Virus record (IMG/VR): IMGVR_UViG_3300042890_002798 | Location: 1-58,038 of that record | DNA from: a virus | Taxonomy: Duplodnaviria > Caudoviricetes | Reading direction: 5' to 3' (one strand) | DNA length: 58,038 nt | In this document: piece by piece, positions 9,008 to 56,020 of the stretch | Layout: every line of letters begins with the position of its first letter | Position numbering within the stretch: position 1 is the stretch's first letter | Made by a program: the position numbers and the translations under genes | Notes under the pieces: model-generated | What the model was told of the DNA's origin: nothing | The model's input: only the letters and a program-made list of their open reading frames with translations | The model's database searches: none

Positions 9008-9694
9008 ATGGCCACATCCGGGACGTATGCGTTCAATCCTGCTCTTGGTGAGATTGTCATTGGCGCTTATGCCCGTTGTGGCATTCGCCGAACTGAGCTT
9101 ACCCAGCAGCACATGGAAGACGCACGATTTGAATCCAATATGCTCATGTCTAATTGGGCTGGCAACGGGATCAATCTGTGGCAGGTGGATACGGGAACGA
9201 TAAACCTTATCCAGGGTCAGGCGGCATATACTATTCCCACAAATACAGTTTTCCTTTTGGATGTATACATAACGCAAGGAAACAATCCGGCAATCAACAG
9301 GCTGATCCTGCCGATTAGCCGCACTGACTATGCGTCGATTGCCAACAAGACCCAGCAGGGATTTCCCACATCCTATTGGTTTGACAGGTTAATCAATCCA
9401 AATTTATACATTTGGCCACTTGCAAATCAGGATGGAGCGTATACACTCACTTATTACAGGATGCGACAGGCTCAGGACAGTGAGTTATCCAATGGGACAA
9501 ACGTCGAGGTTCCGTGGTATCAACTTGATGCCTTTCTGGCGGGTTTGGCTTCTCGATTAGCAGTTATCTATGCTCCCGATAAGGTTCAAATCCTTGAGCC
9601 TCTTTATCAGGCGTCGTGGCAAAAGGTTCTTCAGGCAGGAACAGAAAACGTTCCGTTAAAGATTTCTCCGCAGCTTCGCTCTTACTTCCGGTAA
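9008..9694 (+). CDS. Head-tail adaptor/tail tubular protein
   Basis: MATSGT start, W.N.GINLW, ISRTDY..I.NK...G.P..YW, LYIWP motifs. Confidence 0.7.
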   Translation: MATSGTYAFNPALGEIVIGAYARCGIRRTELTQQHMEDARFESNMLMSNWAGNGINLWQVDTGTINLIQGQAAYTIPTNTVFLLDVYITQGNNPAINRLILPISRTDYASIANKTQQGFPTSYWFDRLINPNLYIWPLANQDGAYTLTYYRMRQAQDSELSNGTNVEVPWYQLDAFLAGLASRLAVIYAPDKVQILEPLYQASWQKVLQAGTENVPLKISPQLRSYFR

Positions 9695-9700
9695 GCCAAA

Positions 9701-10366
9701 ATGGCATTGACCTACACAACCTATGTTGCCCAGATAGCCAATATTATGGCTGCGCAATCGTCTACGACGCAGTTCCAGACGATGTTGCCTGGTTGTATAG
9801 ATTACGCAGAACAAAGATTGTACCGTGAGCTAAATCTTATATTTACGCGTGCTACGGTTACTGGCACGCTCTCTCCAAATACAAGATCGTTTACCCTTCC
9901 GAATGCCACTGGCTCCATTCCGTTCATAACGGTGAGCAATGTGAATGCGCTCATTTCCGGAAGCCGCAGGCCGCTTGCGCATATGCCTTCAAATGTGGTT
10001 GATTACCTTGCTCCAAGCGATACCGCTTCGGCGGGTAATTTTCCGACGATGTATTATATGAAGGATCAGTCAAATCTAATTGTTGGCCCTTCGTCCACCA
10101 CATCTACAACTCTTGAAATACTTGGCACATACAGGCCGGCGCCTCTGTCTGTCAGCAATACAACGACACAGCTAACAAATTTCTTCCCGGATTTGTTCAT
10201 TGCCGCTAGCATGATATTTGCCTCCGGTTACATGAGAGACTTTGGCGCTCAATCTGATAATCCGCAGCAGGCTCAGTCATGGGAAGCTCAATATGAGCTA
10301 TTAATTAAATCTGCGCAGACTGAAGAAGCCCGCAAGCGGTTTAATGAAGAGGCGTATAAACAATGA
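9701..10366 (+). CDS. Adaptor/neck ring protein, paralog 1
   Basis: IDYAEQRLYREL...RPAPLS..N.TT.LTN..PDLF..ASM. Confidence 0.7.
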   Translation: MALTYTTYVAQIANIMAAQSSTTQFQTMLPGCIDYAEQRLYRELNLIFTRATVTGTLSPNTRSFTLPNATGSIPFITVSNVNALISGSRRPLAHMPSNVVDYLAPSDTASAGNFPTMYYMKDQSNLIVGPSSTTSTTLEILGTYRPAPLSVSNTTTQLTNFFPDLFIAASMIFASGYMRDFGAQSDNPQQAQSWEAQYELLIKSAQTEEARKRFNEEAYKQ

Positions 10367-11040
10367 ATTATCTGGAATACGCTTTGGTAATTGCAAATCA
10401 AATTCCTGTGGACAAATCGTCTACGGCATTTCAGGCATTTCTTCCATCAATTATAGATTATGCAGAACAACGTATTTACAGAGAGTTAAATCTTTTATCA
10501 ACTCGCATTCGTAATTCTTCGTCAAATTGCACTGCAAATAATCGTTCATTTACTCTTCCTACAAATCTTGGGACATTTATAACGGTTACAGAAATAAGCA
10601 TAATTACTCCAGTTGGAAGCACAGCCGCAAATGGAACGAGAAACGTTCTTATGTCTGCGGCAAAAAAGCTTGTTGATGTTGTTGCTCCCACAAATACAGC
10701 GGTATCTGCATCTCAGGTGCCGTCCATGTATTATATGCTTGATCAGCAAACTGCTATATTCGGACCATCTCCGGGAGCTGCCTTTAATGTTGAAGTTACG
10801 GGAACAATTCGTCCGGCTCCATTGTCGGCTACAAATACGACGACATTTTTGACAACAAATTTACCGGATTTGTTTGTCGCCGCCAGTATGGTATACGCCG
10901 GAAACAACATGAGGGATTTTGGCATTGAGGCCGGCAACGCTGCAATTGCCCAATCCTGGGAGCAGCAATATCAGGCATTGTTCGCCTCCGCCAATGCGGA
11001 AGAGACTCGCAAGCGCTATAATCTGGAAGTTAGCCAATGA
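10363..11040 (+). CDS. Adaptor/neck ring protein, paralog 2
   Basis: IDYAEQRIYREL...RPAPLSATNTTTFLTTNLPDLFVAASM. Confidence 0.7.
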   Translation: MNYLEYALVIANQIPVDKSSTAFQAFLPSIIDYAEQRIYRELNLLSTRIRNSSSNCTANNRSFTLPTNLGTFITVTEISIITPVGSTAANGTRNVLMSAAKKLVDVVAPTNTAVSASQVPSMYYMLDQQTAIFGPSPGAAFNVEVTGTIRPAPLSATNTTTFLTTNLPDLFVAASMVYAGNNMRDFGIEAGNAAIAQSWEQQYQALFASANAEETRKRYNLEVSQ

Positions 11041-11735
11041 GCATGAATTATACCTCATACACGCTTAGGCTTGCTTCGTTTATAACGACCAATCCGGACA
11101 ATGTTGACTATACTGTTTTGATACCGTCAACTATAGATTATGCAGAACAACGCGTTTACCGCGAACTGGATTTATTATCCACAGTTGTAACAAATGACAC
11201 AGCTTCAACGACTGCCGGAAACAGGAATTTCACCCTTCCGACGGGTCTTGGAAAATTTGTTACTGTCCAGACCATTAATATAATTACACCTGCTTCTACT
11301 GCGCCAAATAGCGGAACGCGCCGCCAGCTTACGCCTGTAGATCGACGCTATCTGGATGCTGTGTGGAATAGCTCAACGGGAGCTACTGTTCCGAAGCACT
11401 TTGCCATGAATGATCAGGATACGATTATTTTTGGACCTTGGCCCGATGCTACATATCGTGTTGAGGTTGTAGGAACAATTAGGCCCACGCCTTTGTCTTA
11501 TAGTAATCCTACGACATTCCTTACGAATTATCTTCCTGATCTGTTCTTGTCGGCAAGCATGGCGTTTTTTGCTAAAAATTTACAAGATAAGGGCGTAGGA
11601 ACGGCAAATAATGCCGAGTTTTGGGATAATAATTATAAAGAACTATATGCTTCTGCCAATGCTGAAGAGCTTAGGAAAAAATTTGCCGGACCGTCATGGA
11701 CATCTATGTCTTCTGTTAAGCCTCCGGAGAGATGA
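11037..11735 (+). CDS. Adaptor/neck ring protein, paralog 3
   Basis: IDYAEQRVYREL...RPTPLSYSNPTTFLTNYLPDLFLSASM. Confidence 0.7.
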   Translation: MSMNYTSYTLRLASFITTNPDNVDYTVLIPSTIDYAEQRVYRELDLLSTVVTNDTASTTAGNRNFTLPTGLGKFVTVQTINIITPASTAPNSGTRRQLTPVDRRYLDAVWNSSTGATVPKHFAMNDQDTIIFGPWPDATYRVEVVGTIRPTPLSYSNPTTFLTNYLPDLFLSASMAFFAKNLQDKGVGTANNAEFWDNNYKELYASANAEELRKKFAGPSWTSMSSVKPPER

Positions 11736-11736
11736 A

Positions 11737-12228
11737 ATGTTAAATCCGGAAAATATTAAAGAAATATTTAATTATAATCCAGAAACAGGCGATCTTACTT
11801 GGCGTCAACGTATTGGTGGAAGAACTCTCGGCAAAATCGGAACATTAGACAAAGATGGCTATTTAATATTTTTAATGAATTACCGAAAAAATAGGTATTG
11901 TGTTCATAGGGTTATTTGGGCTTATGTTCATGGAAAATGGCCTAAAGATCAGATTGATCATATTAATGGGATTAAAAACGACAATAGATTATGCAATTTG
12001 AGACAGGCTAATACGGCAGAAAATATGAGAAATGTTGGAAGGCAGTCTCATAATACTAGCGGAATCAAGGGCGTTTCATGGCATAAACTTCGCGGGAAAT
12101 GGCGTGCAGATATCAAGGTGAATCAGAAACAAATCTGGCTTGGTAATTTTGATTGTTCTGCGGCTGCATCATTTGCGTATCAGATAGCTGCTGATAAATA
12201 CCACGGAAAATTTGCGAGGTCTTTCTAA
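11737..12228 (+). mobile_element. HNH-AP2 homing endonuclease
   Basis: YNPETG..HR..W....G.WP..QIDHINGIKNDNRLCNLR..N.SG.KGVSW; likely ATG 11737. Confidence 0.9.
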
Positions 12229-14501
12229 TGCCATTTGAGACACTTCGCATTGTGCCTTCTGTCGATCTGGAAAAAACCCTTGCGGACAATGCTGCCGGCA
12301 TTTCCTTTTCCAATTTCATCCGCTGGCGCGATAAATTGCCTGAAAAGCGTGGCGGCTCTGTATATTTCAATAATAGTTCAGCGACATATGGCGTTGTCCG
12401 GGCGCTTCATGCCTGGCAGGGTTTGAGCAATTTTAAATTTCTTGCAATTGGATCAACAACGTCTTTAACAATCTATTATTTTAACACAACAACAAATACA
12501 TGGATTACAATTCCTATTACGCCCAAGTCATTAACGGTAGATGTATCTCCTACTATTGTAAGTCAAAATGCAACAACGCTTTCAGATACAAGGGTATTTG
12601 TTAATGATGTTGGACGAAACGTCACACTATATTGCACTGTAATATTTCAAACACAGGCTTCTGTTCCACCTTCTGGATCATTTGGTTCAAATGGCGCGAA
12701 TTTTGGATGCTTTTTGCCCTCAAAAGGATATCAGATAAATAATCTGGTTACTGCAAATATATATGAAATAACGGGAACAAACGGACATGTTGGCGCTCCT
12801 TCTACGGGATTGGTTCCTCAATTTGTCACTGCAATTAACGATGGAATAGTAAGAGTTAATTTGCAGGGCCATACCTATGCTGTTGGCGATGCGGTAGATT
12901 TTAATGTTTCCACAACGGTTGGCGGAATACCGATTTTTGGTAGATATATTGTTACAGAATCCGTTATTACTGCTACCTCAGGTTCGTATCCTAGTCCCAA
13001 TGTTGGTTATTTCAAATTTAGGGCTCAACAAAACGCTACTTCTACTCAAACCGCCTCAATGAATGGCGGAAACCTAAAACTTACCTATTGGGACACCAAT
13101 AACAGCATTTCCGGCTCAACTTCAGTTACAACAACGGATTGGTGGCTAGACAATTGGGGAGAGACGTTAATAGCCAATTATGTTGATGGTCCAATTTTTA
13201 CATGGAACGTTGCTTCTCCTAACTTTTTTGCCCAGATGATATCAAATGCGCCTGTTGTAAATTTCGGGTGCTTTGTTGCAATGCCTCAACAAATGATTAT
13301 GGCCTGGGGATCGACATACACATCATTTCAGGATCCTTTGCAAATTCGTTGGTGCGATGCCGGAAACTATGATGATTGGACGCCTACAACAATAAATCAG
13401 GCTGGTGGGTTTAGGATACCGACGGGTTCCAAGCTTGTGCGAGGCATTCAGGGACCAGCGCAGCAATATTGGTGGACGGATATTGATTTGTATGTTTCTC
13501 AATATGTTGGCCCGCCTTTTGTGTTTAATTTTAATAAAATCGGTTCTGGATGCGGGTTGATTTCGCCAAAAGCAGTTGGGCAACTTGGCCCTACGCTTTA
13601 CTGGATGAGCCAAAAACAGTTTTTTGCCGTTTCCTCAACCACTGGCGTTCAGCCGATACCTTGTTCTGTCTGGGATTATGTATTCCAGAACCTTAATGAG
13701 GCTCAGGTAGATAAAATACGATGTGCGCCTAATTCACAATTCAATGAGATCACATGGTTTTTTCCCGCTGTAATAGGAATGGTAACATCTGTTGCAAATA
13801 ATGGAACCGGAAATTTAAGAGTTACACTATCAAGTTCTGCGCGAACAATCGTTAATGGTGAAACTGTTACTTTATCAGGGATGAGCGTGCCTGCATACAA
13901 TGGCTCATTTGCAATAAGCAATGTGGTTGGCAATTCTTTTGACATTACTACTGTTGCATTTACAACTACAGCTACTGGCATATGCTCATCTACTGAAAAC
14001 GATTCATATGTGACCTATAATGTTCTTTACAATGAATGGGATGTTGGCAAGCTTGCTCGTTCCGCATGGGTCAACCAATCAATATTTGGCGCTCCGCTGG
14101 CTGCTGATACATCGGGAATTATTTATCAACATGATAATACTGGCGTTTATAATCTCGGAAATGATAATATTATAATAAACGCGTATTTTGAGACTGGTTA
14201 CTTTTCAATCACAAACGGCAATGATCTTGTCTTTGTTGATTGGATGCTTCCGGATATGAAGTGGGACACCTACGATGGCTCCCAATCGGATGCGACAATT
14301 AAAATCAGTTTTAACGTCACTGATTATGCCGGAGATACGCCAACGCTTTACGGGCCGTTCACCGTGACAAAGGCGACGCCATACATTGAGCCTCGATTTA
14401 GAGGAAGGTTCATGCAGATTATTGTTGAAAGCGAAGATTCGGATAGTTTCTGGCGACTAGGCTCAATCCGATATCGCTTTGCTCCAGCAGGTAGACGATA
14501 A
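12228..14501 (+). CDS. Tail nozzle / packaged-DNA stabilization protein
   Basis: WWLDNWGE, IRWCDA, WTPT..NQAG, YWMS, C-terminal PRFRGR; position after the adaptors. Confidence 0.75.
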   Translation: MPFETLRIVPSVDLEKTLADNAAGISFSNFIRWRDKLPEKRGGSVYFNNSSATYGVVRALHAWQGLSNFKFLAIGSTTSLTIYYFNTTTNTWITIPITPKSLTVDVSPTIVSQNATTLSDTRVFVNDVGRNVTLYCTVIFQTQASVPPSGSFGSNGANFGCFLPSKGYQINNLVTANIYEITGTNGHVGAPSTGLVPQFVTAINDGIVRVNLQGHTYAVGDAVDFNVSTTVGGIPIFGRYIVTESVITATSGSYPSPNVGYFKFRAQQNATSTQTASMNGGNLKLTYWDTNNSISGSTSVTTTDWWLDNWGETLIANYVDGPIFTWNVASPNFFAQMISNAPVVNFGCFVAMPQQMIMAWGSTYTSFQDPLQIRWCDAGNYDDWTPTTINQAGGFRIPTGSKLVRGIQGPAQQYWWTDIDLYVSQYVGPPFVFNFNKIGSGCGLISPKAVGQLGPTLYWMSQKQFFAVSSTTGVQPIPCSVWDYVFQNLNEAQVDKIRCAPNSQFNEITWFFPAVIGMVTSVANNGTGNLRVTLSSSARTIVNGETVTLSGMSVPAYNGSFAISNVVGNSFDITTVAFTTTATGICSSTENDSYVTYNVLYNEWDVGKLARSAWVNQSIFGAPLAADTSGIIYQHDNTGVYNLGNDNIIINAYFETGYFSITNGNDLVFVDWMLPDMKWDTYDGSQSDATIKISFNVTDYAGDTPTLYGPFTVTKATPYIEPRFRGRFMQIIVESEDSDSFWRLGSIRYRFAPAGRR

Positions 14502-14920
14502 TGTCACAAGACGCAATTAACGCATCCGCTCAAAATGCAGTTGTTGCCATAAATGCTCTTAATAAATTTATTGACACAATATCTGTTTCGCTTGTTGCGT
14601 CTACGGCCACCTTGGCTGACATTAATCTAAAACAATTTGGCACGACAAATAGCTCAGCTTTAGTCGGACCATCAACGCTTCCTCTTATACAAACAAATAT
14701 ATACGATGGTACTGGGACTTTGGTTCGGATATCGGTTATCAAAGACGGCACAAGTCAGGGTTATATTTACGACAGAGATGTAATTGTTGCGACAACCCAG
14801 TATCTCTGTGCCATACCCAACACCATAGGCATTTATGAAGTCCACTTACGATTTAGCACTGGACTGGTCATTGAGCCTGGGTTAGATCAAACTGTTCTTG
14901 TCTCTTACTCTCCAGACTGA
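14501..14920 (+). CDS. Putative virion protein
   Basis: Coupled ORF ending GLVIEPG..Q.V.VSYS. Confidence 0.55.
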   Translation: MSQDAINASAQNAVVAINALNKFIDTISVSLVASTATLADINLKQFGTTNSSALVGPSTLPLIQTNIYDGTGTLVRISVIKDGTSQGYIYDRDVIVATTQYLCAIPNTIGIYEVHLRFSTGLVIEPGLDQTVLVSYSPD

Positions 14921-14928: not shown

Positions 14929-15522
14929 ATGCCTCTCCAAAAGGGTAAAAGTCAAAAGGCGATTTCTGCTAACATTTCCGAACTGGTTCATTCGGGACGC
15001 CCGCAGAAGCAAGCAATTGCCATCGCCCTGGACACGGCCCGCAAAGCTATGGATCGTGGCGGCGGAGTGCCAAAACATGTCGCCAAGAGAGTCGTGCATG
15101 AAGGGCCGATTAATGTGGCAATACCTGGCCGCACAGACAGGCTCCCGGTGCATGTCTATTCCGGGTCTTATGTCATTCCGGCGGATATTGTGTCAGGTCT
15201 TGGAGAGGGCAATACGCTGGCCGGGAATGATGTTATTCGTCGCATGTTTTTCCATGATTCCAGCCCGCTCAAGAGAGCCAAGGGCGGTCGGTCCATGATG
15301 ACTGAAAAATATGGACTGCATGGCTATTACCACAATGACACGCGAAAGATCGTACCCTGTATTGTTGCCGGCGGAGAGTTCATCATTCCTCCGGAAGTCG
15401 TAGAGGAATTAGGCGAAGGCGATATGGATAAGGGCCACGCCCTTCTTGACTCGTTTGTTAAGTCTCAAAGACGTAAATTGCGTCAAAAGCTCGCTAAATT
15501 GCCTCCGCCCGCGCAGGACTAG
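14929..15522 (+). CDS. Modular protein: KQAIAIAL basic module, GG linkers and a duplicated GE/SxVIP..VV..LGEG domain
   Basis: Internal duplication at aa ~72-107 and ~142-177; two GG motifs. Confidence 0.7.
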   Translation: MPLQKGKSQKAISANISELVHSGRPQKQAIAIALDTARKAMDRGGGVPKHVAKRVVHEGPINVAIPGRTDRLPVHVYSGSYVIPADIVSGLGEGNTLAGNDVIRRMFFHDSSPLKRAKGGRSMMTEKYGLHGYYHNDTRKIVPCIVAGGEFIIPPEVVEELGEGDMDKGHALLDSFVKSQRRKLRQKLAKLPPPAQD

Positions 15523-15528: not shown

Positions 15529-15993
15529 ATGAAATTTGATGATTGCCCGGATGTTCGGATTGCCCAGCAGTCTGATGAGGAAGAGCTTGTCCGGTTAGCC
15601 CAAATGGCTGCCGAAGAGGATAATCAAGGCACATTTGACATAGATAAAGTCAGGTCTGTTCTTAATCTTCATTTCCATAAAGCCGGTGGGATCATTGGCG
15701 TTATAGGAAATCCGGGCCATAAATTAAAAGCTTTTACACTGTTAGCAATTACCCAACCATGGTATAGTTCAGATGGTCAGGTTCAGGAGTTGTCATTGTT
15801 TGTTGACCCTGACCACAGAAAAACGGATTATGCCAAGCAGTTGATGGTATTCAGTAAAAAGACATCGGAAGCTCTTAATCTTCAGCTTTCTATTGGCGTT
15901 ATAGCTAATGAAAAGACTGAAGCAAAGGTTCGTTTGTATCAAAGGCAATTCCCACAGGCGGGAGCCTTTTTTCGTTATAATCCGCAGGCTTAG
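15529..15993 (+). CDS. GNAT-family acetyltransferase-like protein preceding the ejection genes
   Basis: VRIA..D, LFVDPDHRK...A..L, RLYQR motifs. Confidence 0.75.
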   Translation: MKFDDCPDVRIAQQSDEEELVRLAQMAAEEDNQGTFDIDKVRSVLNLHFHKAGGIIGVIGNPGHKLKAFTLLAITQPWYSSDGQVQELSLFVDPDHRKTDYAKQLMVFSKKTSEALNLQLSIGVIANEKTEAKVRLYQRQFPQAGAFFRYNPQA

Positions 15994-16004: not shown

Positions 16005-19000
16005 ATGCCGCAGACGACGGGCCAGAATTGGGGCATTTACAACCAGACATACACGCCAGCGGCGCAGACAGATATTTTCAATGCCATGCGTCGGGCGCAG
16101 GATGTCTCGCAGCTTCCGTTTCAGCCGTATCTTGGCCAGACCGTCGCGGGTTTTGCGCCGTCCGAAATTGCCGCCATGCGCGGTATTTATGGCTTGCAGG
16201 GATATTATGAGCCTTATGGACAGCAGGCGACGACTTTACTTGGTCAGGCCCAGGCATATGCCAATCCAAATGACCCCAGATTGCAGCAAATCCTTGGCGC
16301 GCAAATACCTACGTTTTCTCAACAAGCTGTTCAGCAATATTATAGTCCATATCAGAAAAATGTCATCGACGCTACGATGGCCAATATTGCCCAGGAGAAT
16401 TTGCGCCAGCAAAATGATCTGACTGCTCGCGCTATCCAACAGGGCGGATTTGGAGGAGACAGAACTGGTATCGCAAGGGCTGAGTTAAATCGTCTTCAGA
16501 ACCTACAGAATGCCCAGACGCTCTCTCAATTGCAAAATCAGGGTTATGCCCAGGCATTAGGAGCATTTCAGCAACAACAGGATTTTGCAAGGCAGAAGCA
16601 GGCTCAGGATTTTGCTCAATATAGTGCGGCAAGAAACGCCGCTATTCAGGCTGCTCAGCAGGGCGCTTACTCATTAGGACAGCTTGGCCTTCAGGGCCAG
16701 CAAGCCGGTATGCAGGGCATTCAGGCGCTTATGGGCGTTGGCCAGATGGAGCGCGCGCTTGGTCAGGCGCAGCTTGAGGATCAGTTCAAGCGTTATATGA
16801 CTGCCATGGGCTATCCCTGGGAGACCGCACAGTGGCTTGCTTCTATCGTTGGCTCTCTTGGACCGCAGGCTGGTGGCACAACGTCCGGCGTCAGCTTCGG
16901 CGGATCCAGCCAGCAGACGCCAGGCCCCAGCCCGATTTCATCAATAGCTGGTCTGGCGACAAGCGGCCTTGGGGCTTTGCTCAAGCTGTTTCCCGGAGCC
17001 GGGTTTAAAGACGGTGGCCGCGTTGGCAAGGCTGATGGCGGTGGATTTGGTGAAATTCAGAGCCTTGGCCTTGAAAGCCCGTGGTCCGGATTTGACCCTC
17101 GCCGGTTGAACGAAGAGAAAATGCGGCAATGGGTTTCTCGCCTTGATGTTGATGAGGCGGTTAAGGACCAGTTGCGTGAACGCAGTTGGCTTAATCCGGA
17201 TGAGACCTATGAGCCTTATCAGGATGAAGAAGAAGACCGTTCATTTTTGATGAGCCATGGCGGTCGCGCGGGTTATAAGGCTGGGGGCCGTCCATATGAG
17301 GGAGGGTCTTCTTATATTGAGTCTGATACTGTTCCCTATATTGACAAGCTAGAGCTTGCGCCTCCCAAGGCTCCGACGATTCCAAATCCCAAAAAGCCCG
17401 AGGCTCCTGAAGTCGGGAAGCTGGAAGGCGATGATAGTTTTGGTGATCTTGGCAAGATGATCGGGTCGCTGGGAACAAATGTTTCGAAGTATTTCTCCAC
17501 GAGAAGCTCTAATCCTGCCGCAGCTATTACAGCTGACGAAGCTAATACAGAGTCTGAAACAGCCTCAGAAGAGCAATATGGCGGTCGCGTCGTAAAGGCC
17601 GATGGTGGTGGATTTGGAAATTGGCTCTCTTCGCTCCGTCAGGCTGGCAGCCCGACTGCTCCATATTTGCAAAATCAGGCCTCACAGCCACGACCGATGA
17701 TCTCCAATATTGGAGATTTGTATAAATTTGCTTTCGGCAGAGAAGCCGATCCTGAAGGAGCAAGGTTCTGGCAGCAACAGCAGCAAGCTGGCATGTCTCT
17801 TGGGGATATTGCAAAGAATATTCTTTCCTCTCAAGAGGCAGTTTCAAGATACGGGCAAGAAAACATCGGCGGATTGCAGGATGTTTTTAGTAAATTTACT
17901 TCTACGCCCGCTGCGCCAGGATCTGTTTCTCCGTTCCAGACGCTTTTGACGACTGGCGGCGCGCCGGTAGTAAATCCTGATGGAACGCCTGTTACGCTGG
18001 AGGATGTTCAGACTCCATCCGCCGTTCAGGGACCGCCCGGACAAGGTCCGTATTCAGAAGGCGACATTGCAGCGGCGGGACAAATTTCTCCACCTGATGC
18101 CGGATTGATGCTGATGGTGGGCAAGAATCCGATGCTTGCCGTTGTTATCAATCAGCAGCAGCAAGAGAAGCAGGCTGCGGCCAATCGCAAGGTCGCAGAA
18201 ATGCGCGCCTATAATGATCAGGTTTATAATGCGCCGAGGTCTCCTATCGGATACTTTATGAACCTGGATTACAGGACAATGAGCCCGAGCGGCTTGTTCG
18301 GCTTCAATCCTATTTCTCCTTATTATTCGCCTATTGTTCCCACGGCTATTAAAAGAAATGCTGGTGGCAAGGTCGAAGAACCGCGTCCGGGACTTGATCT
18401 TGGCGGTATTGCCAGACTTCCAGGGCAAACGTCTTCAATGATGACCGGCCCTGCCTCGCAGACATCATTCTCGACTAACCCTCCGGGTTACAATCCGAAT
18501 GCCTATGGGCCGTATCGTGAGAGCGGTGGCCGTGTTGGCATGAGGGATGGTGGAGATCCTTCAATCATTGACCGGATTGCGAGAGGCATTGCTGCAATAG
18601 AAAGCGGCGGCTCCAAAAACCCATATGCTGTCGTCGGCGCAAGAAGCCGTAAGGGTGATCGTCCGTATGGCAAATATCAAATTATGGGCGCAAATATCCC
18701 GTCATGGGGTCGTGAGGCCGGGTATCCTAATCTGACCGTCCGCGAGTTTCTGTCTAATCCTAAAATCCAGGAAGATGTTGCGAGAACCCAGTTCGCCAAA
18801 ATATTTGCCAAGAGCGGCAGTCCGAATGCCGTTGCTGGCGAATGGCTAGGCGGCCCAGGTTGGAGACGAAACAGAAGCGCCGATGTTTTGGGAACAACTG
18901 TTCCGGAATATATCCGTCGCTTTGCTCGCGCTTATGGATCTCCAACTGATGTTGTGGCTTCTTCGCGCCCTGCCTCCCAAACTCCTGTCAGAATCGCAAA

Positions 19001-21092
19001 AGTCCGACCGCTGACTGGTGAGCGTGTTGGCGCGGCAACATCTTCTGTGGCTCCCGTTTCAGCCGCTGATGCTCAATGGGAAAACCGCACGCGGTATGAT
19101 TACAGCAAACCTTCGGCTGAGAGGGTTCCGTCTGCGGGTTCTACCGTCGCCGCTCCAGCCAAAAAGGGTTTTAGCCTTTCTGATCTGAATCCTATTGGAT
19201 CAGCACAGGCTGCCGAAGCTGGTGTTGAGCCGAAGCCTGAATCCTTCAAGGATGCGGCTGCTCGTATGCGCGGTTTGAGCGGAACCTATGCTCCGGGTGT
19301 CACAGAGCAAAAATCCCTCTACACTGATTTTGGAAATCTTATTCCTGATCGGGATATGCTGGAGGAGACGCCATACGCCCAGACCATGGTTGGCTCTCCG
19401 ATGAGCATGAGCATTTGGGATGGGCTCGGATTTAGTGAGCCTTCCAACGATGTTGTCTCTGAAGAACCCGCCAGGGCCAAGCCGCAAGCTGCTCCGGCAT
19501 CGGAAAAACGAGAGCCTGAAAAAGGTCTCTATTTCGGTGATTTCCGGGATTACGAGCCGTGGAAGTCTGATCCGATCGGCGGCTTCTTTGATGAGCTTAT
19601 GGGCGAAAAGCCACAGAGCAAAACGATGGGCAAGCGCCCGGATGTAAACTCCGGAGACGGACTGGGCTTCCTCAAGGAGCTTTTCAGTGGTCGCGCGAGT
19701 GGCGGGCGAATGGGCTATGCCGATGGTGGATCGCCGGAAGACGAAGATACGTTGACCATTGATCCGGAATTGTTGAGCCCTGAGCCCATGGGTCCGACAA
19801 AAGGATTTGATCTGGCTGAAGAGCCGACGCCCGAGTCGGATGTTGTGTCTGCTGAAGAGGCTCCCGCCACAAGGCGCGCTCCTGCCGCTTCTGCCGCTCA
19901 GAAGCCCGCTGAGCGTGGGTTTGGATCTATGCTGGGTCTTGATCGTGGGAGACTTGATTCGCTTGCTGACGCCATGATTGCCGCCGGTTTTGGCATGATG
20001 GCTGGCAAGTCTCCGAATGCCTTCCAGAATATCGGCATGGGTGGCCTTAAAGGCATCGAGGCTTATCAGGCCGGTGAGGCTATCCGGGCGCGTCGGGAGG
20101 GTGAACTTGCCAAGATCAGACAAAAAGAAGCTGAATCTGATCGTGAGCGGAACTATTTGACGGAATTTTTAGGCGCTCCATCTGCGGAAGCCGCTCCAAT
20201 CCGTCCCGTCTCCAGGCAGGAAGGCGCAGATACTGAACTTGAGCCTCTTTATGATGAGCTGGAAAGATATCAGCGCGGCATCGCAGCGGCTCCCAGCCCT
20301 GAAGCTGCTCGACGGCTGAAGCTTCTTCAGGACAATATCAAGTTCAAAATCCAGCGCCTGAAAGAAGCGCAGACACAAAAAGAACGAGCAATAGAAAAGG
20401 CTCCTTCAAGCGTCTTTGAAAAGAAGCAGGCTGAAGTAAGCGCCTCTGAGTTTGCAAAGGATTATCAGGAAACACAGAAAGCCGCTGAAGCCGCAAGAAA
20501 GAGCGATGTTATTCTTCGCAGCACGTTGGATGCTCTTAATGATCCGACTGTTTATACAGGCGCGGCTGGCGAAACTGTTCTGGAAACCAAAAAGAAAATG
20601 GCCGGTTTGCTGGACCAGTTCCCGTCCCTCAAGAACGTCATTCCTGAGATGTTGACGCCATCGACATCCGGCATTGCCCAGACGGAAATGCTGAAATCCG
20701 GCGCGATCAAGTCTGTTCTTGAGGCTGCTGGAGGAAGGTTTGGCGCTGGCTTCTCCGATGGCGACCGCAGAGCGATGGAAGCCGCATCATTTGGCGTCGG
20801 CACATCCAGAGAGGGCAATATCAAAATCATCAAACAGGCTCAGGCTGCGAACAATCGCATCCAGGAAATCGCCCGTATGCAGCAAGATTATATCTCGCGC
20901 AATGGCGTCCTCGATGATGGGTTCAATCGTGAGCTTCAGCAGTATGCAAAAGCAAATCCCTTGTTCGACGCAAAGGGAAATCCGGTTGAGGAGGGTAAAG
21001 CTCCTCCGGCATCTGCGCAGACCGAATCAAAACCACGATTTACTCGCGAGCAAATTCAGGAAGAACTTCGTCGCCGTCAGGGAGCGCGATAA
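16005..21092 (+). CDS. Giant DNA-ejection protein with DUF4214-like and lytic transglycosylase modules
   Basis: Gln-rich N-terminus (SPYQKNVID, GGFGGDR); LYKFAFGREADPEGARFW; IAAIESGG..GKYQIM; about 11 GG motifs. Confidence 0.75.
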   Translation: MPQTTGQNWGIYNQTYTPAAQTDIFNAMRRAQDVSQLPFQPYLGQTVAGFAPSEIAAMRGIYGLQGYYEPYGQQATTLLGQAQAYANPNDPRLQQILGAQIPTFSQQAVQQYYSPYQKNVIDATMANIAQENLRQQNDLTARAIQQGGFGGDRTGIARAELNRLQNLQNAQTLSQLQNQGYAQALGAFQQQQDFARQKQAQDFAQYSAARNAAIQAAQQGAYSLGQLGLQGQQAGMQGIQALMGVGQMERALGQAQLEDQFKRYMTAMGYPWETAQWLASIVGSLGPQAGGTTSGVSFGGSSQQTPGPSPISSIAGLATSGLGALLKLFPGAGFKDGGRVGKADGGGFGEIQSLGLESPWSGFDPRRLNEEKMRQWVSRLDVDEAVKDQLRERSWLNPDETYEPYQDEEEDRSFLMSHGGRAGYKAGGRPYEGGSSYIESDTVPYIDKLELAPPKAPTIPNPKKPEAPEVGKLEGDDSFGDLGKMIGSLGTNVSKYFSTRSSNPAAAITADEANTESETASEEQYGGRVVKADGGGFGNWLSSLRQAGSPTAPYLQNQASQPRPMISNIGDLYKFAFGREADPEGARFWQQQQQAGMSLGDIAKNILSSQEAVSRYGQENIGGLQDVFSKFTSTPAAPGSVSPFQTLLTTGGAPVVNPDGTPVTLEDVQTPSAVQGPPGQGPYSEGDIAAAGQISPPDAGLMLMVGKNPMLAVVINQQQQEKQAAANRKVAEMRAYNDQVYNAPRSPIGYFMNLDYRTMSPSGLFGFNPISPYYSPIVPTAIKRNAGGKVEEPRPGLDLGGIARLPGQTSSMMTGPASQTSFSTNPPGYNPNAYGPYRESGGRVGMRDGGDPSIIDRIARGIAAIESGGSKNPYAVVGARSRKGDRPYGKYQIMGANIPSWGREAGYPNLTVREFLSNPKIQEDVARTQFAKIFAKSGSPNAVAGEWLGGPGWRRNRSADVLGTTVPEYIRRFARAYGSPTDVVASSRPASQTPVRIAKVRPLTGERVGAATSSVAPVSAADAQWENRTRYDYSKPSAERVPSAGSTVAAPAKKGFSLSDLNPIGSAQAAEAGVEPKPESFKDAAARMRGLSGTYAPGVTEQKSLYTDFGNLIPDRDMLEETPYAQTMVGSPMSMSIWDGLGFSEPSNDVVSEEPARAKPQAAPASEKREPEKGLYFGDFRDYEPWKSDPIGGFFDELMGEKPQSKTMGKRPDVNSGDGLGFLKELFSGRASGGRMGYADGGSPEDEDTLTIDPELLSPEPMGPTKGFDLAEEPTPESDVVSAEEAPATRRAPAASAAQKPAERGFGSMLGLDRGRLDSLADAMIAAGFGMMAGKSPNAFQNIGMGGLKGIEAYQAGEAIRARREGELAKIRQKEAESDRERNYLTEFLGAPSAEAAPIRPVSRQEGADTELEPLYDELERYQRGIAAAPSPEAARRLKLLQDNIKFKIQRLKEAQTQKERAIEKAPSSVFEKKQAEVSASEFAKDYQETQKAAEAARKSDVILRSTLDALNDPTVYTGAAGETVLETKKKMAGLLDQFPSLKNVIPEMLTPSTSGIAQTEMLKSGAIKSVLEAAGGRFGAGFSDGDRRAMEAASFGVGTSREGNIKIIKQAQAANNRIQEIARMQQDYISRNGVLDDGFNRELQQYAKANPLFDAKGNPVEEGKAPPASAQTESKPRFTREQIQEELRRRQGAR

Positions 21093-45182: not shown

Positions 45183-47435
45183 ATGGCTATACCGTATAAC
45201 CTCCGGCAGGTTCAGCCTCCGCAGGAAGAGCTTCCTGACGAAGAAGTTGTTGATATTCAGGCTCCTGTTGGTGCGCCTGGTATTGGGGCTTTAGCCATTG
45301 ATTTGCCGGATGGTTCGGTATCCATCAATTTCGGCGGCATTCCGTTCAAGCCTCCGGGCGACTCTGAAGAGCATACGGAAAATCTCGCCAAGCACATGGA
45401 TGATACTGAGCTTAGCGGGATTGCCGATACGCTTTTGAAGCATATCCGTGATGACATTTCCCGGCAGGAGCAGCGGCTTCAGGATATTGTGAAGGGCGTT
45501 GATCTTCTTGGAATCAAGCTTGAGGAGCCTCGCTCGGAGCCCGGAGAAGACAGCATTTCCGTTGTCAGGCATCCGCTTTTGCTGGAGGCTATTCTACGAT
45601 TTCAGGCCAACGCCCGTGGCGAAATGCTGCCTGCCGATGGCCCTGTGAAGGTTTCGAATGAAGGCGACCAGTCCAAGATGATGGACGAGGATGCGCGCCA
45701 GCTTGAAAAAGACATGAACCATTATCTGACATCTGGCGCTCCGGAATATTACCCGGATTGCGACCGGATGTTTTTTAGCCTTGCCATGGGCGGAGAGGCT
45801 TACAAGAAAGTCTATTTTCATCCGATCAAGCGCCGTCCGGTCAGCGAAACGATTGACCGTAAGGATTTGATCCTGTCTGAGGGCGCTGTTAGCCTGGAAG
45901 CCAATAGCCGCATCACGCATCGTTGCCGCATGAAGCCGAGCGATGTGAAGCGAATGCAGCTTGCCGGCGTATGGCGTGATGTTCCTCTTGGAGACGCATT
46001 TCTTGCCGGATTGATGGTTAATACTGTTGACACCGCGCTAGAACAGATTTCCGGATTTCAGCCGAAAACTGTTACCGATCCTGAAGACATGGATCGAGAA
46101 ATCTATGAATGTTATTGCGAAATTGATCTCAAGGGATTCGAACATAAGGAGGACGGCGAGCTTACTGGCCTTGCGCTTCCTTATCGCGTCACTATTGATC
46201 GTGATTCTCGCCAAATACTTGAAATTAGACGTTGGTGGGAAGAAAAAGATGAGACATTTACTCGAAAAGAAGTTTTTGTCGAATATATCTTTGTTCCGGC
46301 GTTTCCCGGCGTTAACCTCGGTTTGCTGCATATTCTTGGTAACGCTGATCGCGCTCTTACAGCGGCTTGGCGAATTGCTCTTGACAATGGTATGTTGGCT
46401 AACTTTCCGGGCGGCATTATGGCTCGATCATCCGGAAAGCAGCAAACGACTACGATCAGGGTGGCTCCGGGACAAGTTGCGCCGGTAGATGTTGATGGCG
46501 TTCCTTTGAAGGATGCCTTTATGCCTATGCCTTACCGTGATGTCACGGGAGGCTTTGTCAATATCATCCAGATGATTGAGCAGGCGAGCCAGCGCCTCGG
46601 CGGAACTGCGGAAACGGCAGTTGGCGAGGGCAGGAATGATGCGCCTGTCGGAACTACGATTGCCCTGATTGAGCAGGCGACGCGGGTGATGAATGCCGTC
46701 CATAAGCGTATGCATTCCGCCCAGTGCAAGGAATTTGCTCTTCTGAAAGAGCTATTCAAAAAAGACCCTGAATCTCTTTGGCGTAGTAACAAAAATCCCG
46801 GCTTTGACAGAAATGTTATGCTGCTTCAGCGGGCTTTGGAGAACAAGGATATTGTTCCGAAGTCTGATCCCAACACTTCCAGCCAGACATTGCGCATTCA
46901 GAAGGCGATTGCTCTGAAGCAGGCATCTGCTGCGAATCCGATGCTCTATAATATGCGGGCTGTCGAAGAGCGGTTCCTGTCCATGATTGGCGTTGAGGAT
47001 GCCGCTGATCTTATGAACAATCAGCCTCCGCCTCCGATGCAGGCTGATCCGTCTCCGATGATTGAGGCTCAGGCCAAGATGATTGCGGCGCAGGCCAAGC
47101 TTCAGGATATTCAGGCCAAGACCCAGATTTCTTCCGTGGACCAGCAGACAAAGATTGCTCTTGCCAAAGCCAAGCTTAAAGAGAGCGATACGAAAGCGAT
47201 TCAGGCTCAGACGGATGCGGCCAATCATGCTGCCGACCGGGAGAGCAAGGAAAAGCTTGCCATGATTGACTTTGCTCAATCTGAGCTGGTTCATAAGGAC
47301 AAAATTAGCGAGAATCAACGTCGCGCTGACATTGATACTGCTATGAAGATTGAAAAAGCACAGGAAGAACGTCGTCGTCACGCGATGGATGAAGCTCTTT
47401 CCGCCCAGCAACTATCGCAGAGCGAGACTGAGTGA
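45183..47435 (+). CDS. Portal protein
   Basis: HPLLLEA..RFQA.A..E..P..GPVK; KKVY; PYRVTID; PVGTT.AL.E; Gln/Ala-rich barrel tail. Confidence 0.88.
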   Translation: MAIPYNLRQVQPPQEELPDEEVVDIQAPVGAPGIGALAIDLPDGSVSINFGGIPFKPPGDSEEHTENLAKHMDDTELSGIADTLLKHIRDDISRQEQRLQDIVKGVDLLGIKLEEPRSEPGEDSISVVRHPLLLEAILRFQANARGEMLPADGPVKVSNEGDQSKMMDEDARQLEKDMNHYLTSGAPEYYPDCDRMFFSLAMGGEAYKKVYFHPIKRRPVSETIDRKDLILSEGAVSLEANSRITHRCRMKPSDVKRMQLAGVWRDVPLGDAFLAGLMVNTVDTALEQISGFQPKTVTDPEDMDREIYECYCEIDLKGFEHKEDGELTGLALPYRVTIDRDSRQILEIRRWWEEKDETFTRKEVFVEYIFVPAFPGVNLGLLHILGNADRALTAAWRIALDNGMLANFPGGIMARSSGKQQTTTIRVAPGQVAPVDVDGVPLKDAFMPMPYRDVTGGFVNIIQMIEQASQRLGGTAETAVGEGRNDAPVGTTIALIEQATRVMNAVHKRMHSAQCKEFALLKELFKKDPESLWRSNKNPGFDRNVMLLQRALENKDIVPKSDPNTSSQTLRIQKAIALKQASAANPMLYNMRAVEERFLSMIGVEDAADLMNNQPPPPMQADPSPMIEAQAKMIAAQAKLQDIQAKTQISSVDQQTKIALAKAKLKESDTKAIQAQTDAANHAADRESKEKLAMIDFAQSELVHKDKISENQRRADIDTAMKIEKAQEERRRHAMDEALSAQQLSQSETE

Positions 47436-50400
47436 TGGACATTAAAGATATCCGTGACAAGCAAATCCGCGATGCTTTGATGATGGCGGCTGATCGTGCC
47501 TCCCGTGGCCGCAAGAAAGATTCGCCTAAAGAAAAACCGATGCCCAGGGATTTGGAGACTTTTTACAATCCGGAGGCAGGTTCGCGAATAAAAGACGGAA
47601 TTTTGGAGCCTGGTGACTATGGTCCTAACTATGGCGCAGATGTAAAGAATTGGCGCGAAAAGCGCGGAGCGTATGGTCGGGAAAAAGGCTACAATCCCTG
47701 GGCCGATCCGGAGAATATGTATACTCATCCGTCCGAGGAGCGCCACGACCCGAATGACCCGATTTATAACGTCAGCCCGGAGGAATATCGAAAGGGCGCT
47801 TATGGTCGCGGAGTATATGCTTTAAGGAATGGTGGTCGCGCCGGTATGGCTACAGGCGGCGATCCAACAAGTAATTACATAAGCTCGCTATATCAAAACA
47901 TTATGGGCCGAGAGGCTGATGTGGGCGGCGCTGAATATTGGAAACAGCAGCTTGAAGAGGGAAATATTACTCCTTCAGATATATTGTATAATTTTGCGCA
48001 ATCGCCTGAATTCAAAAATGTTTATCAATCTGATCCGAGCAAGGCTGTAAGCTCTCTTTATCAAGCTGCTCTAGGCAGATCTCCGGATCAGGCAGGTCTT
48101 GATTACTGGAATCAGCAAGTAAAAAGTGGTCTAGGATTAGGAGATTTGGTTTCTGGGTTTACGGGTAGCGAAGAAGGTAGGTCTTACCAAAGCTACAAGT
48201 TCCCTGGACTGTATAACATTAATGATAGTGTTGCCGATCAAGACAGAAAGTATTCGGAACGATTAGTTGCGGATTTGTATCATTCCATTTTAGGTCGTGA
48301 GCCAGATCGGGAAGGTTTTAATTTTTGGACTCGTCAAATGATTGATGGCAAACAATCATATGATGATGTTGCTAATGCTCTTTTCGATTTGCCAGAAGCA
48401 AAAGAAAATTTTGTCAATCAAACTTACAAACAATTTTTGGGTAGAGAGCCGGATGCAGAGGGTAAAAAATATTTTACTCAAGCTCTACAGTCAGGACAAG
48501 CAACGCCTGATCAAATTTATGAAATAATTCAAAATAGCGAAGAAGCTGGCGATTTCGAAATATCTAACTTTATTCAGGATCAATATAAAGGATTGACTGG
48601 GCGCGATCCATCCAGGCAAGAGCTAAACTCAGCATTAGATCAATTAAAAAGTGGAGCTGTTACATTTGATCAGTTTCACTCCAATATGTTTAATTCTCCC
48701 GAATCTCAACAATATCAGGCAAGTAATTTTGAACCGTATCAGGTAGCGAGCGCTGAAGGTTCGGTAACCGTCGCTCCCAAACAGCTTCGAACTGCTTATG
48801 AGTATAGCAAAGCTAATGATGAACTCATTCGAAGCCTTCCTATTGAGCAGCAGGTGGGCGCTCTTCTTCAACAGGAAGGTGGAATTTGGGTTGATAAAAT
48901 TTTAAATCCCAACACACCGAAAGAAATAAAAGATCAAGCTTTAAAGCAATTAGAAGGCATTGTTAATGTTGTAGCTAACCGCGCCGCAGTTGGTTTGACA
49001 GAGAATAGCGGAGGCAAGAAAAGTCCTTGGCGAGGCTGGTTTGATCGTCAGGAAAACGATCCAAAAAGCGTTACCAGTCAAATTTTGGCTCCTTCAGCTT
49101 TTTCCGCAATGAAAATTGGAGTGTCAAAATTAGCTAAAGAAGGCTACAATGCTATTGTAAATCAAGCTATTCCAAACTTTAACAAAGAAGAATATCAACC
49201 AATTATGGATATGATCAAGGGCGTTTTGTCTGGTCAACGTCCTGATATAACCCAAGGTGCAACACATTATAAAGCAAATTATGTCCATCCAGGCTGGGCA
49301 AAAAGGCTCCCTCTTCACACGGATTTAGGAGGAGCGCCTGGAGGAAAGGGACCATATCATCAATTTTATGGAGCCAAGGACAGGGCCGCTGAAGCCCAGC
49401 AGGCCAGATTTGGTGTATCCTATGGTGGCGCAGATGTTGACCCGGCCCTTGCTGGAGCTGGCGCAGGCGTAACTGGCGGTGGCAGTGGGACTGGTTATAT
49501 TCCGGGCGGCGGATCTGGATATGTTCCAGGCGGTGGCGGAATATCTGGACCCGCCGATGTTTCAGGAGCCGGCGGAGATTATACCGGCGGTCATGGCGGT
49601 GGCGGAACCGGGCATGTCGGCGTCGGCACCGGTCATGGCGGCATCCACGGTGGGACACACACAGGAACTCCGCATGTGACTGGCGGCGTTCACACTGCTG
49701 GCCACGGCACGACCTATACCGGCGGTCATGGCGGCCCGCATGTAACGGGTGGCGTTAGTTACCTTGATTCCGGTGGCTATCATCCCGGTGGCTTTCATTC
49801 CGGCGGCGATTTTGGCTCTTATGCGGGCTCGCATGGATTTGGGCATTCGACAGTCGGCCACGGCGGTCATCATGGTAGCCATGTCAGTCCATACCATGGC
49901 TGGTCGTGGGATATGTTCCACTCACAAAACCCTTACGGCATTCATCACAGCTTCAAAAACGGCGGCGCTGTTAAAGACGCTCTCCGCATAGCCAGAGCTT
50001 CAGGTGGCGGCGCATGGACTCGCAAAGAGGGCAAGAACCCTGAAGGCGGGTTGAATGAAAAGGGCCGCGCCTCTCTTCGCGCGCAGGGCCATGACATCAA
50101 GCGCCCACAGCCGGAGGGCGGTTCTCGCAGGGATAGCTTCTGCGCGAGAATGAAGGGCATGAAGGCCAAGCTCACCAGTGCTGAAACGGCCAATGATCCG
50201 GATAGCCGGATTAATAAGTCGCTTCGCAAATGGAATTGTGCGGACGGCGGTGCGATTGATGATGCTCTTATGGTGGCTCGCAAATCTGGCGGAGAAGTCT
50301 GGAACAAACCGCGCCCTAAATCTCTCGGTAAGCCCGAAAAGCTGACATCAAAAGAAAAGGCAAGCGCCAAGCGCATGGCCAAGGCTGCTGGCCGTCCTTA

Positions 50401-50488
50401 TCCTAATCTTGTTGACAATATGCGAGCCGCCAAAGCTGATGGCGGTTCTATTGATGATGCTCTCCGCATTGCGAAGAGGGCTAAATAA
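47432..50488 (+). CDS. Modular protein: DUF4214 repeats, SleB-like cell wall hydrolase, Gly/His region and small basic domains joined by GG linkers
   Basis: Five LY...LGR.PD..G..YW-type repeats; NVVANR..AFS..DIT.GATHY...P.WA..HQFY; SFCARM module; PYPNLVDNM module. Confidence 0.8.
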
Positions 50489-50544: not shown

Positions 50545-51900
50545 ATGGCACATCCGTATAAATCAGAAGCGAAAGCTGGTCACAGCAAGAAGCTTGCGAG
50601 CTATGGCGCAAAGAAAGAAGCGAAGAACTGGGCTGGCGAAAAGGCGTTGAACACCGACCGTCAGGCCGGCATGGACATCATTGAAGAAGAGCCGTCCCTG
50701 TCCAAAAAGACCATGGACCGCATCATGCGCAAGGCTGGCGGTTCCGTTAAGGGCAAGGATGCTGTCAAGCGTCTGGATAAGGTTTCCCGCAAGGGCAAGC
50801 GCCTGAAGGCTGCCGATGGTCTCCCGTCCATTGAGGAGCAGCTTAAATCGGCTGAGCGTCTGAAGGAAATCCGCGCCCGCAAGATGCCGGAAGAGGGTCC
50901 GACGCGCGAGGAAGCCGAGAGCATCAATCGCAAACAGCGTTATTCCATTGAGGATCTGGCTGCTCCCGGTCGCAAGAAGGGCGGCAAGGTCTCCCACATG
51001 GAATGGGAACATTCCAAGAAAGATTTGGCCCAGGATCGCAAGCTGGCCAAAAAGCACGGCATGTCGCTTGAGAAATGGGAAAAGTCAAAGCTTGACGAAA
51101 AGCATGACAAGCAGCAGTCGACCGAAGGTCTAAAGAAGGGCGGTCGCGCCATGCGTGGCTCCGGTGGTCCGGTTGCTCCGAAGACGAAGTCCTACACTTC
51201 TGAGAACAAAGTCACCAAATCGGCCAAATCCGGCGATCGCATGGGCGCTCTTACGGAGGCCGCAAGGACGACTGATCGGGTTAAGAAGTTTGGCGGTGGT
51301 GGTCTGACTGAAGAAAAGTCCACGAGCAAGAAAGCCGGCAAGGCCACTAATCTGACGATTAACATTGGTGGTCCCGGTCAGGGTGGCGCGCAGCCGATGC
51401 CGCCGGCTCCTGCTATGCCGCCTGCTCCTCCGCCGCCTCCGCCCATGCCTCCGATGGGACCGCCGATGGGTGGAATGCCGCCTATGGGTCCGATGGGTGG
51501 TGGTATGCCTCCTATGGGCGGAATGCCTCCGATGGGTGGCGCTCCGATGATGCGTCAGTCTGGTGGCCGCGTTGGCAAACAGATTGGTGGCGGCATGATG
51601 GGCGCTTCGGCTCCGGGTTTCGCCAGCAATGTCCCGCCGATGGGCATGGGTTATGGCCAGCAGATGGATAATCAGCAGGTCAATCCGATGGATCTGATTG
51701 CTCTTGGCAATGCGCTTCGTAGCGGTGGCATGGGAATGGGAACGGGCATGGCTCCGCGCGGCTTCAAGAAGGGCGGTCGAGTCAATCCTGACGTTCCGGT
51801 CAAGCAGCCGGGTCGAACGGCTGAGGGCTACGCGAAAATGGATTATGGCTCTGTTAGCGGTAAGGGCCGCCGCCAAAAGATCCTTGCGCAGGAAGACTGA
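50545..51900 (+). CDS. Lys-rich and Pro/Met/Gly-rich protein with about 8 GG motifs
   Basis: AGGA RBS; RKAGGSV, RKKGGKV, KKGGRA, RQSGGRV, FKKGGRV. Confidence 0.8.
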
Positions 51901-55975: not shown

Positions 55976-56020
55976 TTAAGTCGCTGTATTTATTCAACAA
56001 TGCAGCGACTTAATATTTTC
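55976..56020 (+). terminator. Hairpin/terminator after the capsid gene
   Basis: TTAAGTCGCTG...CAGCGACTTAA followed by TATTTTC. Confidence 0.6.

Follow-up and report, generated by a model that had tools for sequence, protein, structure and literature searches.

What is a phage protein for when it consists largely of one small unit repeated, each copy standing behind a pair of glycines, and is encoded immediately ahead of the DNA ejection genes? The question is raised by P0001, as we call the 197-amino-acid product of an ATG-started open reading frame (ORF) at 14929..15522 on the plus strand of the IMG/VR virus record IMGVR_UViG_3300042890_002798 (Duplodnaviria; Caudoviricetes), which we analysed over its full length (the window); the record is complete, measures 58,038 bp and has terminal repeats. 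A preliminary description, made from the letters of this stretch, had suggested that the duplicated domain might bind or cut Gly-Gly (GG) tags on other internal proteins and so gather them as cargo. Here, we argue for a different answer, which we hold to be probable although far from assured, namely that P0001 belongs to the small internal virion or ejection proteins and represents the empty, cargo-less form of a widespread chassis, whose GG joints in other members of the family take in extra sequence, some of it effector enzymes. The packaging and ejection of P0001 itself we infer from its genomic context.

The protein, whose start codon lies 8 nt past the stop of the upstream ORF, is built of modules that follow one another on the plus strand. 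Residues 1–43 (14929..15057) make up an N-terminal module, predicted to be a helical hairpin, which opens with an invariant M-P-L and matches phrog_2423 at E 5.9e-18; this is the only PHROG match of P0001, and phrog_2423 has no known function. The first GG joint (GGG, residues 44–46; 15058..15066) leads to unit 1 (residues 55–112; 15091..15264), a beta-hairpin (72–77 and 81–83) plus two helices that scores 102 bits against the profile hidden Markov model (HMM) of that unit. A second joint, R-A-K-G-G (residues 116–120; 15274..15288), then leads to unit 2 and the basic C-terminal helix (residues 126–197; 15304..15519; 98.9 bits against the unit-2 HMM), where the hairpin (141–146 and 151–153) includes an invariant Glu150 and is followed by helices at 155–161 and 166–190 and a conserved L-P-x-P tail. 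The two joints are also the first and second sites of insertion in relatives. The preliminary description had called the domain stand-alone, which holds only in part, since the first 43 residues are a separate conserved module, found also on its own as proteins of 43–100 amino acids in Ralstonia, Burkholderia and Vibrio phages and in cyanophages. Residues 26–49 also align with DUF6496 (PF20106) at 13.4 bits (E 0.1), below the gathering cutoff of 24 bits, and one long member of the family matches DUF6496 at E 1.6e-10. Across an alignment of 41 sequences, G44 and G45 are invariant, as are G67, R68, D70, P84, N95 and G99 of unit 1, and the extreme N- and C-termini are both strongly conserved.

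That the two units are copies of one another, as had been proposed from the stretches at residues ~72–99 and ~141–168, is borne out by comparison of the halves of P0001 with BLASTP, which aligns 32 residues, 11 identical and 20 positive (26.6 bits, E 3e-6 for a single comparison). It is borne out also by HMMs built for each unit from 41 family members, of which that for unit 1 finds residues 143–180 as well (independent E-value, i-E, 2e-5) and that for unit 2 finds residues 69–103 (i-E 8.7e-4); 125 of the best 150 representative clusters show this cross-match too. The GG motif seen ahead of each unit, GGG at 44–46 and GG at 119–120, is similarly not confined to P0001. Among 268 family proteins, many of them closely related and hence not independent, GG lies at most 60 amino acids before the unit-1 hairpin in 261 (absent in 3) and at most 45 before the unit-2 hairpin in 231 (absent in 27), and the joint has the logo [K/R/F]-[A/S]-x-G-G-[R/A/S]-[V/A]. 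Judged by this pattern, each conserved unit includes its own GG joint, in cis.

An AlphaFold model of P0001 from the 41-sequence alignment agrees with this layout, with a mean predicted local distance difference test (pLDDT) of 82.4. The N-terminal module is modelled as helices at 9–21 and 26–42 (pLDDT 85–96), and twice thereafter, at 72–107 and 141–190, strands of six and three residues are succeeded by a short helix and then a longer one; modelled by itself, the C-terminal part reaches pLDDT 84.4 and a predicted template modelling score of 0.77. The GG stretches at 45–51 and 117–125 fall below pLDDT 50 and are linker-like, so that the joints are predicted to be disordered while the modules are modelled with confidence.

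The family to which P0001 belongs is very large and has no name. Among proteins of 108–345 amino acids we found 1392 homologues at E<=1e-3, all unnamed, and at the same threshold the family comprises 3107 representative clusters (50% identity). Most members lie on contigs of phage size that are binned with a range of bacteria; a few, on large Alphaproteobacteria contigs, are probably prophages. The units match no Pfam family, and no paper describing the family was found in the literature consulted. Its architecture, counted in the best 150 of the 3107 clusters, is that of a fixed frame with variable filling. The N-terminal module opens the protein in 143 of the 150, unit 1 occurs in all and unit 2 in 149, ending at most 10 amino acids from the C-end in 148 of these 149. 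Lengths run from 95 to 1462 amino acids, with inserts of up to ~1260, and the extra sequence falls at the joints: at least 80 amino acids between the N-terminal module and unit 1 only in 72 clusters, at least 100 between units 1 and 2 only in 13, and both in a single cluster. Short members like P0001 (<=230 amino acids) account for 45.

Some of these inserts are recognizable enzymes. In the 84 long members, Pfam assigns NUDIX to 4, ART-PolyVal to 4, InPase to 3 and ADPrib_exo_Tox, GNAT, a nucleotidyltransferase and DUF6098 to 1 each, 15 domain assignments in all, so that effector-type fusion is a minority trait at the level of the family; PHROG matches include Alt-like ART, nudix and endolysin-like families besides. 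The placing follows the joints: P0212 carries its GNAT between the N-terminal module and unit 1, and P0182 its ART-PolyVal ahead of unit 1; the space between the units holds NUDIX in P0251 and DUF6098 together with NUDIX in P0259. NUDIX, ART, InPase and GNAT-type domains belong to the repertoire of proteins that phages package and inject, as described by Iyer et al. 2017 (PMC5512222), in whose text we found no mention of the chassis; the supplements could name it. Pfam and PHROG scans find no passenger domain in P0001 itself, and no MuF or portal family was found by Pfam in P0001 or the 84 long members. A locus search of viral contigs with P0165, another ART-bearing member, brought up no relatives. 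We also considered the fused GNAT of P0212 as a Rosetta-stone link to the GNAT-like protein encoded next to P0001, a link we rejected: phmmer gave nothing at E<=10 and an HMM of 100 unique GNAT homologues gave E 0.11, which places the two in different subfamilies.

From this architecture we propose the following mechanism. The chassis would consist of the N-terminal helical hairpin, two units (each an [A/S]-x-G-G joint, a beta-hairpin and helices) and the basic C-terminal helix; these constant modules would secure the packaging of the protein and its passage through the tail channel, and passengers spliced into the joints would reach the host at infection. The GG joints would serve as flexible hinges belonging to the protein itself, and possibly as cutting sites of the kind mapped in phage T5, and the phage of the window would carry the chassis empty.

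The genes around P0001 point in the same direction. In order, the window encodes four SU10-type adaptor paralogues, a nozzle-like protein, a 139-amino-acid protein, P0001, a GNAT-like protein and proteins of 1695 and 675 amino acids, and from the adaptors and nozzle the phage is, to judge by homology, short-tailed. The nozzle-like protein (757 amino acids; 12228..14501, plus strand) matches phrog_3287 at E 8.6e-40, its relative in MW202675 being annotated 'phage stabilization protein'. The 139-amino-acid protein (14501..14920, plus strand) falls in no Pfam, PHROG or NCBIfam family and has homologues in the same place in many loci. Downstream, the GNAT-like protein (154 amino acids; 15529..15993, plus strand) matches Acetyltransf_7 at E 1.9e-4, which is below the Pfam cutoff, and the acetyltransferase family phrog_1249 at E 2.4e-11, and the giant putative ejection protein (1695 amino acids; 16005..21092, plus strand) matches phrog_4287, 'DNA ejection protein', over residues 21–324 and has a homologue in MW202675 annotated 'internal virion protein D'. 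The earlier placing of the domain in front of the ejection genes is thus sound, P0001 lying between the nozzle-like gene and the protein with the phrog_4287 N-terminus. The four adaptor paralogues are in tandem at 9008-11735 (PF24175, E 4.7e-10 to 2.7e-21).

This order is a regular one. Among the loci of 115 unique family genes in IMG/VR, and counting only those long enough to tell, a nozzle homologue lies upstream in 103 of 103 (at least 3 kb of upstream sequence), a GNAT homologue downstream in 98 of 98 (at least 700 nt) and a homologue of the giant protein downstream in 74 of 77 (at least 2.5 kb). Within this one lineage, the product of the gene in the slot ranges from 166 to 605 amino acids. 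In the more distant MW202545, both units end a 639-amino-acid protein encoded between the nozzle and transglycosylase-bearing proteins. Synechococcus phage MinM2 encodes, two genes after the nozzle, a 294-amino-acid 'calcium-binding protein' (L163:12429-13313) with a single unit near its C-end (E 5e-13); MinM2 is a cultured cyanophage, and this protein is a possible experimental handle.

In the account of podovirus ejection operons given by Hardies et al. (PMC4819975), the nozzle gene is followed by that of an acetyltransferase-like, non-structural internal virion protein (IVP) A, then a small IVP-B and the large IVP-C and IVP-D, and proteins of the operon carry passenger domains into the cell. 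The genes around P0001 fit this type of operon. The GNAT-like gene of the window is best read as a candidate for this IVP-A, a reading that we draw from its position and from Hardies et al. rather than from a profile test of its own; its alignment with T7 gp13 gave hhalign 1.6%. Acetyltransferase genes lie a few genes after the nozzle in two distant podophages, Roseobacter phage CRP-901 (gp34, L162:15006-15440), whose protein is homologous to that of the window (E 2e-14), and Octadecabacter DB2 (gp16, L164). In the 25 kb examined around the CRP-901 homologue there is no unit-bearing protein. The preliminary idea that the GNAT could acetylate Lys-rich tags finds no support here, since a homologous GNAT takes the same operon position there with no unit-bearing protein beside it and IVP-A is a regular part of such operons (PMC4819975).

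The strict adjacency of the GNAT gene to the family gene in all 98 loci can be given another meaning, by which P0001 would remain unpackaged and act, together with its IVP-A-like neighbour, as a non-structural assembly factor for the ejection proteins. We regard this as unlikely, since a chaperone that stays behind in a dying cell would have little use for fused NUDIX, ART or pyrophosphatase domains, the CRP-901 homologue of the GNAT does without a unit-bearing protein in the stretch examined, and the unit is common to tape-measure proteins, which are virion components. A prediction of the complex of P0001 (41-row alignment) with the GNAT (33-row), run without controls, returned a score of 0.00 and a mark of 0.32, which speak neither for nor against binding.

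The relation to tape-measure proteins, suggested in the preliminary description, was confirmed for unit 2. A profile of the GG..GE[FY]V stretch of nine proteins (lambda gpH, seven annotated as tape measure and one record unannotated), which range from Drexlerviridae to an Arthrobacter phage and include those of Tls, Sweeny, Bauer, Acinetobacter Acba_15 and Pseudomonas PSA-2T, aligned with the unit-2 alignment at hhalign 94.6% (E 6.5e-8) over 39 columns, the A-x-G-G joint included, and with the whole C-terminal alignment at 89.9%. The GG..GE[FY]V element is present in the tape-measure genes of 1008 phage records, and its plan is that of unit 2, with an A-x-G-G joint followed by a beta-hairpin bearing G-E-[F/Y]-V and a G-x-G turn. 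We therefore take the unit to be, in all likelihood, one and the same as the element that siphophage tape-measure proteins carry close to their C-terminal end. P0001 matches no tape-measure family of Pfam. For lambda gpH, in which TIGR01541 covers residues 472–813 (E 1.1e-134) and the Pfam family Tape_meas_lam_C residues 627–701 only, the element lies at ~725–771, and this stretch taken alone matches the family weakly (HMM 2.4 bits, E 0.007 for one sequence; hhalign 14%). That region is inside the cleaved fragment gpHC, was not resolved by cryo-electron microscopy and has no known role in the account of PMC12617516. In the tape measure of Arthrobacter phage Bauer (L087), the element is followed by a second Y-A-x-G-G joint and then, by eye, an M23 peptidase-type motif, the joint thus standing at a domain border.

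Two further explanations start from this kinship. In the first, P0001 would dock as the tape-measure C-terminus does and serve to close or guard the tail channel as a structural part rather than act as an ejected carrier. Its gene follows directly on those of the nozzle and the small 139-amino-acid protein, both of its extreme termini are strongly conserved, and a tape-measure C-terminal fragment is placed at the closed tail tip in the descriptions of PMC12617516 and PMC10038345. We think it very unlikely nonetheless, as the part of gpH that holds the element (about 690–817) differs from the part docked to gpI (818–849; PMC12617516) and inserts of up to ~1260 amino acids are hard to fit into such a plug; a plug that leaves first would, moreover, be compatible with an ejected chassis.

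The second explanation concerns cleavage. Here, the ejection proteins of podophages and the tape-measure proteins of siphophages would have a self-contained processing module in common, the GG-hairpin unit, which would direct or catalyse a cut just before A-x-G-G, made by the unit itself in cis or by a protease still unknown. Passengers, or the tape-measure C-terminal fragment, would thereby be released, and P0001 itself would end up as two or three fragments. In favour of this stands T5 pb2, which is cut after R1127 (PMC10038345) and there continues A-E-G-G with a G-E..V-V stretch 19 residues on, a form that the R-A-K-G-G of joint 2 resembles by eye. Lambda gpH, for its part, loses a C-terminal piece of ~14 kDa at an unmapped site in a glycine-rich region, by a protease that is unknown (PMC12617516), with the element at ~725–771; Glu150 is invariant in unit 2; and a PHROG scan of 19 window proteins revealed no prohead protease. 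On the other side, the position of Glu150 is taken by Ser, Ala or Thr in unit 1 and there is no consistent catalytic set in common with tape-measure proteins. The unit-1 and unit-2 HMMs find no match in T5 pb2 at E<=100, and the whole-family HMM matches weakly and away from the cut site, at 859–894 and 972–1001 (i-E 0.19 and 0.24). With support as thin as one mapped site in one phage, we rate both the existence of such a module and the release of fragments by it as unlikely. If it were true, processing would liberate passenger enzymes once the chassis has been delivered and would explain the conversion of lambda gpH to gpH* and gpHC, and P0001 would offer the smallest natural substrate, or enzyme, for testing it.

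Returning to the idea of a reader acting in trans, by which the duplicated hairpin would bind or cut the GG tags of other internal proteins and collect them for packaging, we find it highly improbable. In its favour, the window does contain many orphan GG motifs in putative internal proteins, including eight copies of the strong tag GG[RK][VAM]x4-5GG, often at domain borders, in the proteins of 1695 (16005-21092), 1018 (47432-50488) and 451 amino acids (50545-51900). A looser form of the joint motif is also enriched ~2.6-fold over shuffled sequences (1.69 against 0.66 per protein) in 67 unique giant proteins encoded beside a family member, and the constant company of GG joint and hairpin in tape-measure proteins and unit 2 makes a hairpin-GG contact conceivable. 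Co-occurrence, however, is poor. All 67 giants are encoded beside the family gene and only 13 carry any strong tag, for which reason the strong motif is best described as lineage-specific; the 17.7-kb stretch of MW202675 includes a P0001 homologue and no strong tags. The reader without tags is thus a common case. HTVC023P, Octadecabacter DB2 and the T7 stretch examined contain neither unit nor strong tag, and one HTVC023P ORF has two looser joint motifs. Each unit, furthermore, brings its own GG joint in cis, the extra sequence of relatives is fused covalently rather than recruited, and the modules occur in no other protein of the window, where no other ORF matches the unit HMMs better than E 0.48. 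The P0001 gene should accordingly not be counted as evidence for a trans-acting reader of GG tags.

Nor did searches for a known fold or enzyme lend the reader any help, although absence proves nothing here. Foldseek, a check that the preliminary description had itself proposed, returned no match in the PDB at E<=1e-3 for either the full model or that of the C-terminal part. In a wide VIA-align search, the full model yielded nothing beyond generic matches to its N-terminal hairpin (Z<=5.9 over 38 residues), and the C-terminal model reached at best Z 2.9 among 48,161 chains. In BFVD, the P0001 model found uncharacterised phage proteins only, and in the ESM Atlas unnamed viral clusters, the nearest named cluster being a crAss cargo protein at 0.77, below the usable level. 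The Pfam scan at E<=1 gave P0001 no peptidase family, again an absence that proves nothing.

The chassis reading, which we continue to prefer, has to be set against several observations that weigh the other way. No proteomics that would place a member of the family in the virion or among ejected proteins was found. The 115 syntenic loci all belong to one lineage, and their gene order may reflect inheritance rather than constraint. 'Passenger enzyme' is a term that fits a minority of inserts: those of ten out of ten long members from syntenic loci gave no Pfam family, and many inserts are of low complexity and rich in further GG joints. The likeness to tape-measure proteins spans only 39 columns and falls to hhalign 3% for unit 1, and TIGR01541 (tape_meas_lam_C) finds no match at E<=1 in P0001, P0121 or P0136. 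By sequence, the family resembles no solved structure, a PDB search with P0001 giving one chance match (a designed DARPin, E 2.1) and the family profile none. P0001 also precedes the GNAT gene, whereas the small ejection protein of T7 follows IVP-A, and no similarity to T7 gp14 is detectable (hhalign 0.4% for the 41-sequence family alignment against the single T7 sequence, a comparison of low sensitivity). In that alignment, the last ~25 residues of gp14 (L159:3729-4316) lie against the A-x-G-G joint and first strand of unit 2 and stop where the unit-2 hairpin would begin, which may be chance.

Elsewhere in the window, the gene of the 1018-amino-acid protein immediately follows that of the portal. 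The protein combines four DUF4214 repeats with a low-complexity stretch rich in Gly and His, DUF6321, a weak match to cell-wall hydrolases and three C-terminal helix-plus-GG repeats, which the N-module HMM does not detect. The Lys-rich protein of 451 amino acids has several K-K-G-G-type motifs and a Pro/Met/Gly repeat block, belongs to no Pfam or PHROG family and could be a scaffold or internal protein. A GroES-like co-chaperonin (52264-52680; phrog_3188, E 9.1e-11) is encoded in the head module. Two genes within the structural module are likely of the homing-endonuclease type, one at 56000-56737 with endonuclease VII and HNH PHROG matches (E 4e-29), the other at 11611-12228, overlapping the last adaptor gene and HNH-like by eye only.

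Should the chassis reading be true, the family would offer a natural slot for loading exchangeable enzymes into short-tailed phage particles and a handle on new injected anti-defence effectors, for which the unrecognised inserts would be candidates. The shared GG-hairpin element, for its part, ties podophage ejection proteins to tape-measure proteins and points to the cleaved part of gpH.

Among known systems, the closest in size and setting are the IVP-B proteins, such as T7 gp14 and P22 gp7. P0001 is like them in length (197 against the 181–240 amino acids given for small ejection proteins in PMC8954989), in its basic character (isoelectric point 9.8, against 9.5 for T7 gp14) and in the placing of its gene, which shares an operon with an acetyltransferase-like neighbour and stands between the nozzle gene and that of a giant protein. 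A Kyte-Doolittle scan over 19 residues for transmembrane helices peaks at 1.36 for P0001 and 1.31 for T7 gp14, a crude measure that does not discriminate. The two differ in that P0001 is predicted to be partly beta whereas the gp14 type is all helical, and in that the length of the P0001 family is hypervariable whereas gp14-like proteins are reported to vary by less than 30% (PMC8954989). With tape-measure proteins, P0001 shares, besides the element itself, the expectation of an exit through the tail before the DNA; unlike them, it carries the unit twice, has a further hairpin at the N-terminus and lacks the tape-measure body. Its N-terminal hairpin is resembled by the small DUF6496 proteins, a family with no known function. 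The nearest parallel to the family as a whole is found in the carriers of passenger domains, namely polyvalent proteins and MuF or portal fusions (Iyer et al. 2017, PMC5512222), IVP-D with embedded enzymes, for instance the N4 vRNAP (Hardies et al. 2016, PMC4819975), and T4 Alt, which likewise join a constant, virion-associated part to an exchangeable NUDIX, ART, InPase or GNAT domain and are encoded among late virion genes. The carrier described here is neither MuF, portal nor IVP-D and would differ from all of these in being a split chassis, which flanks its passenger on both sides.

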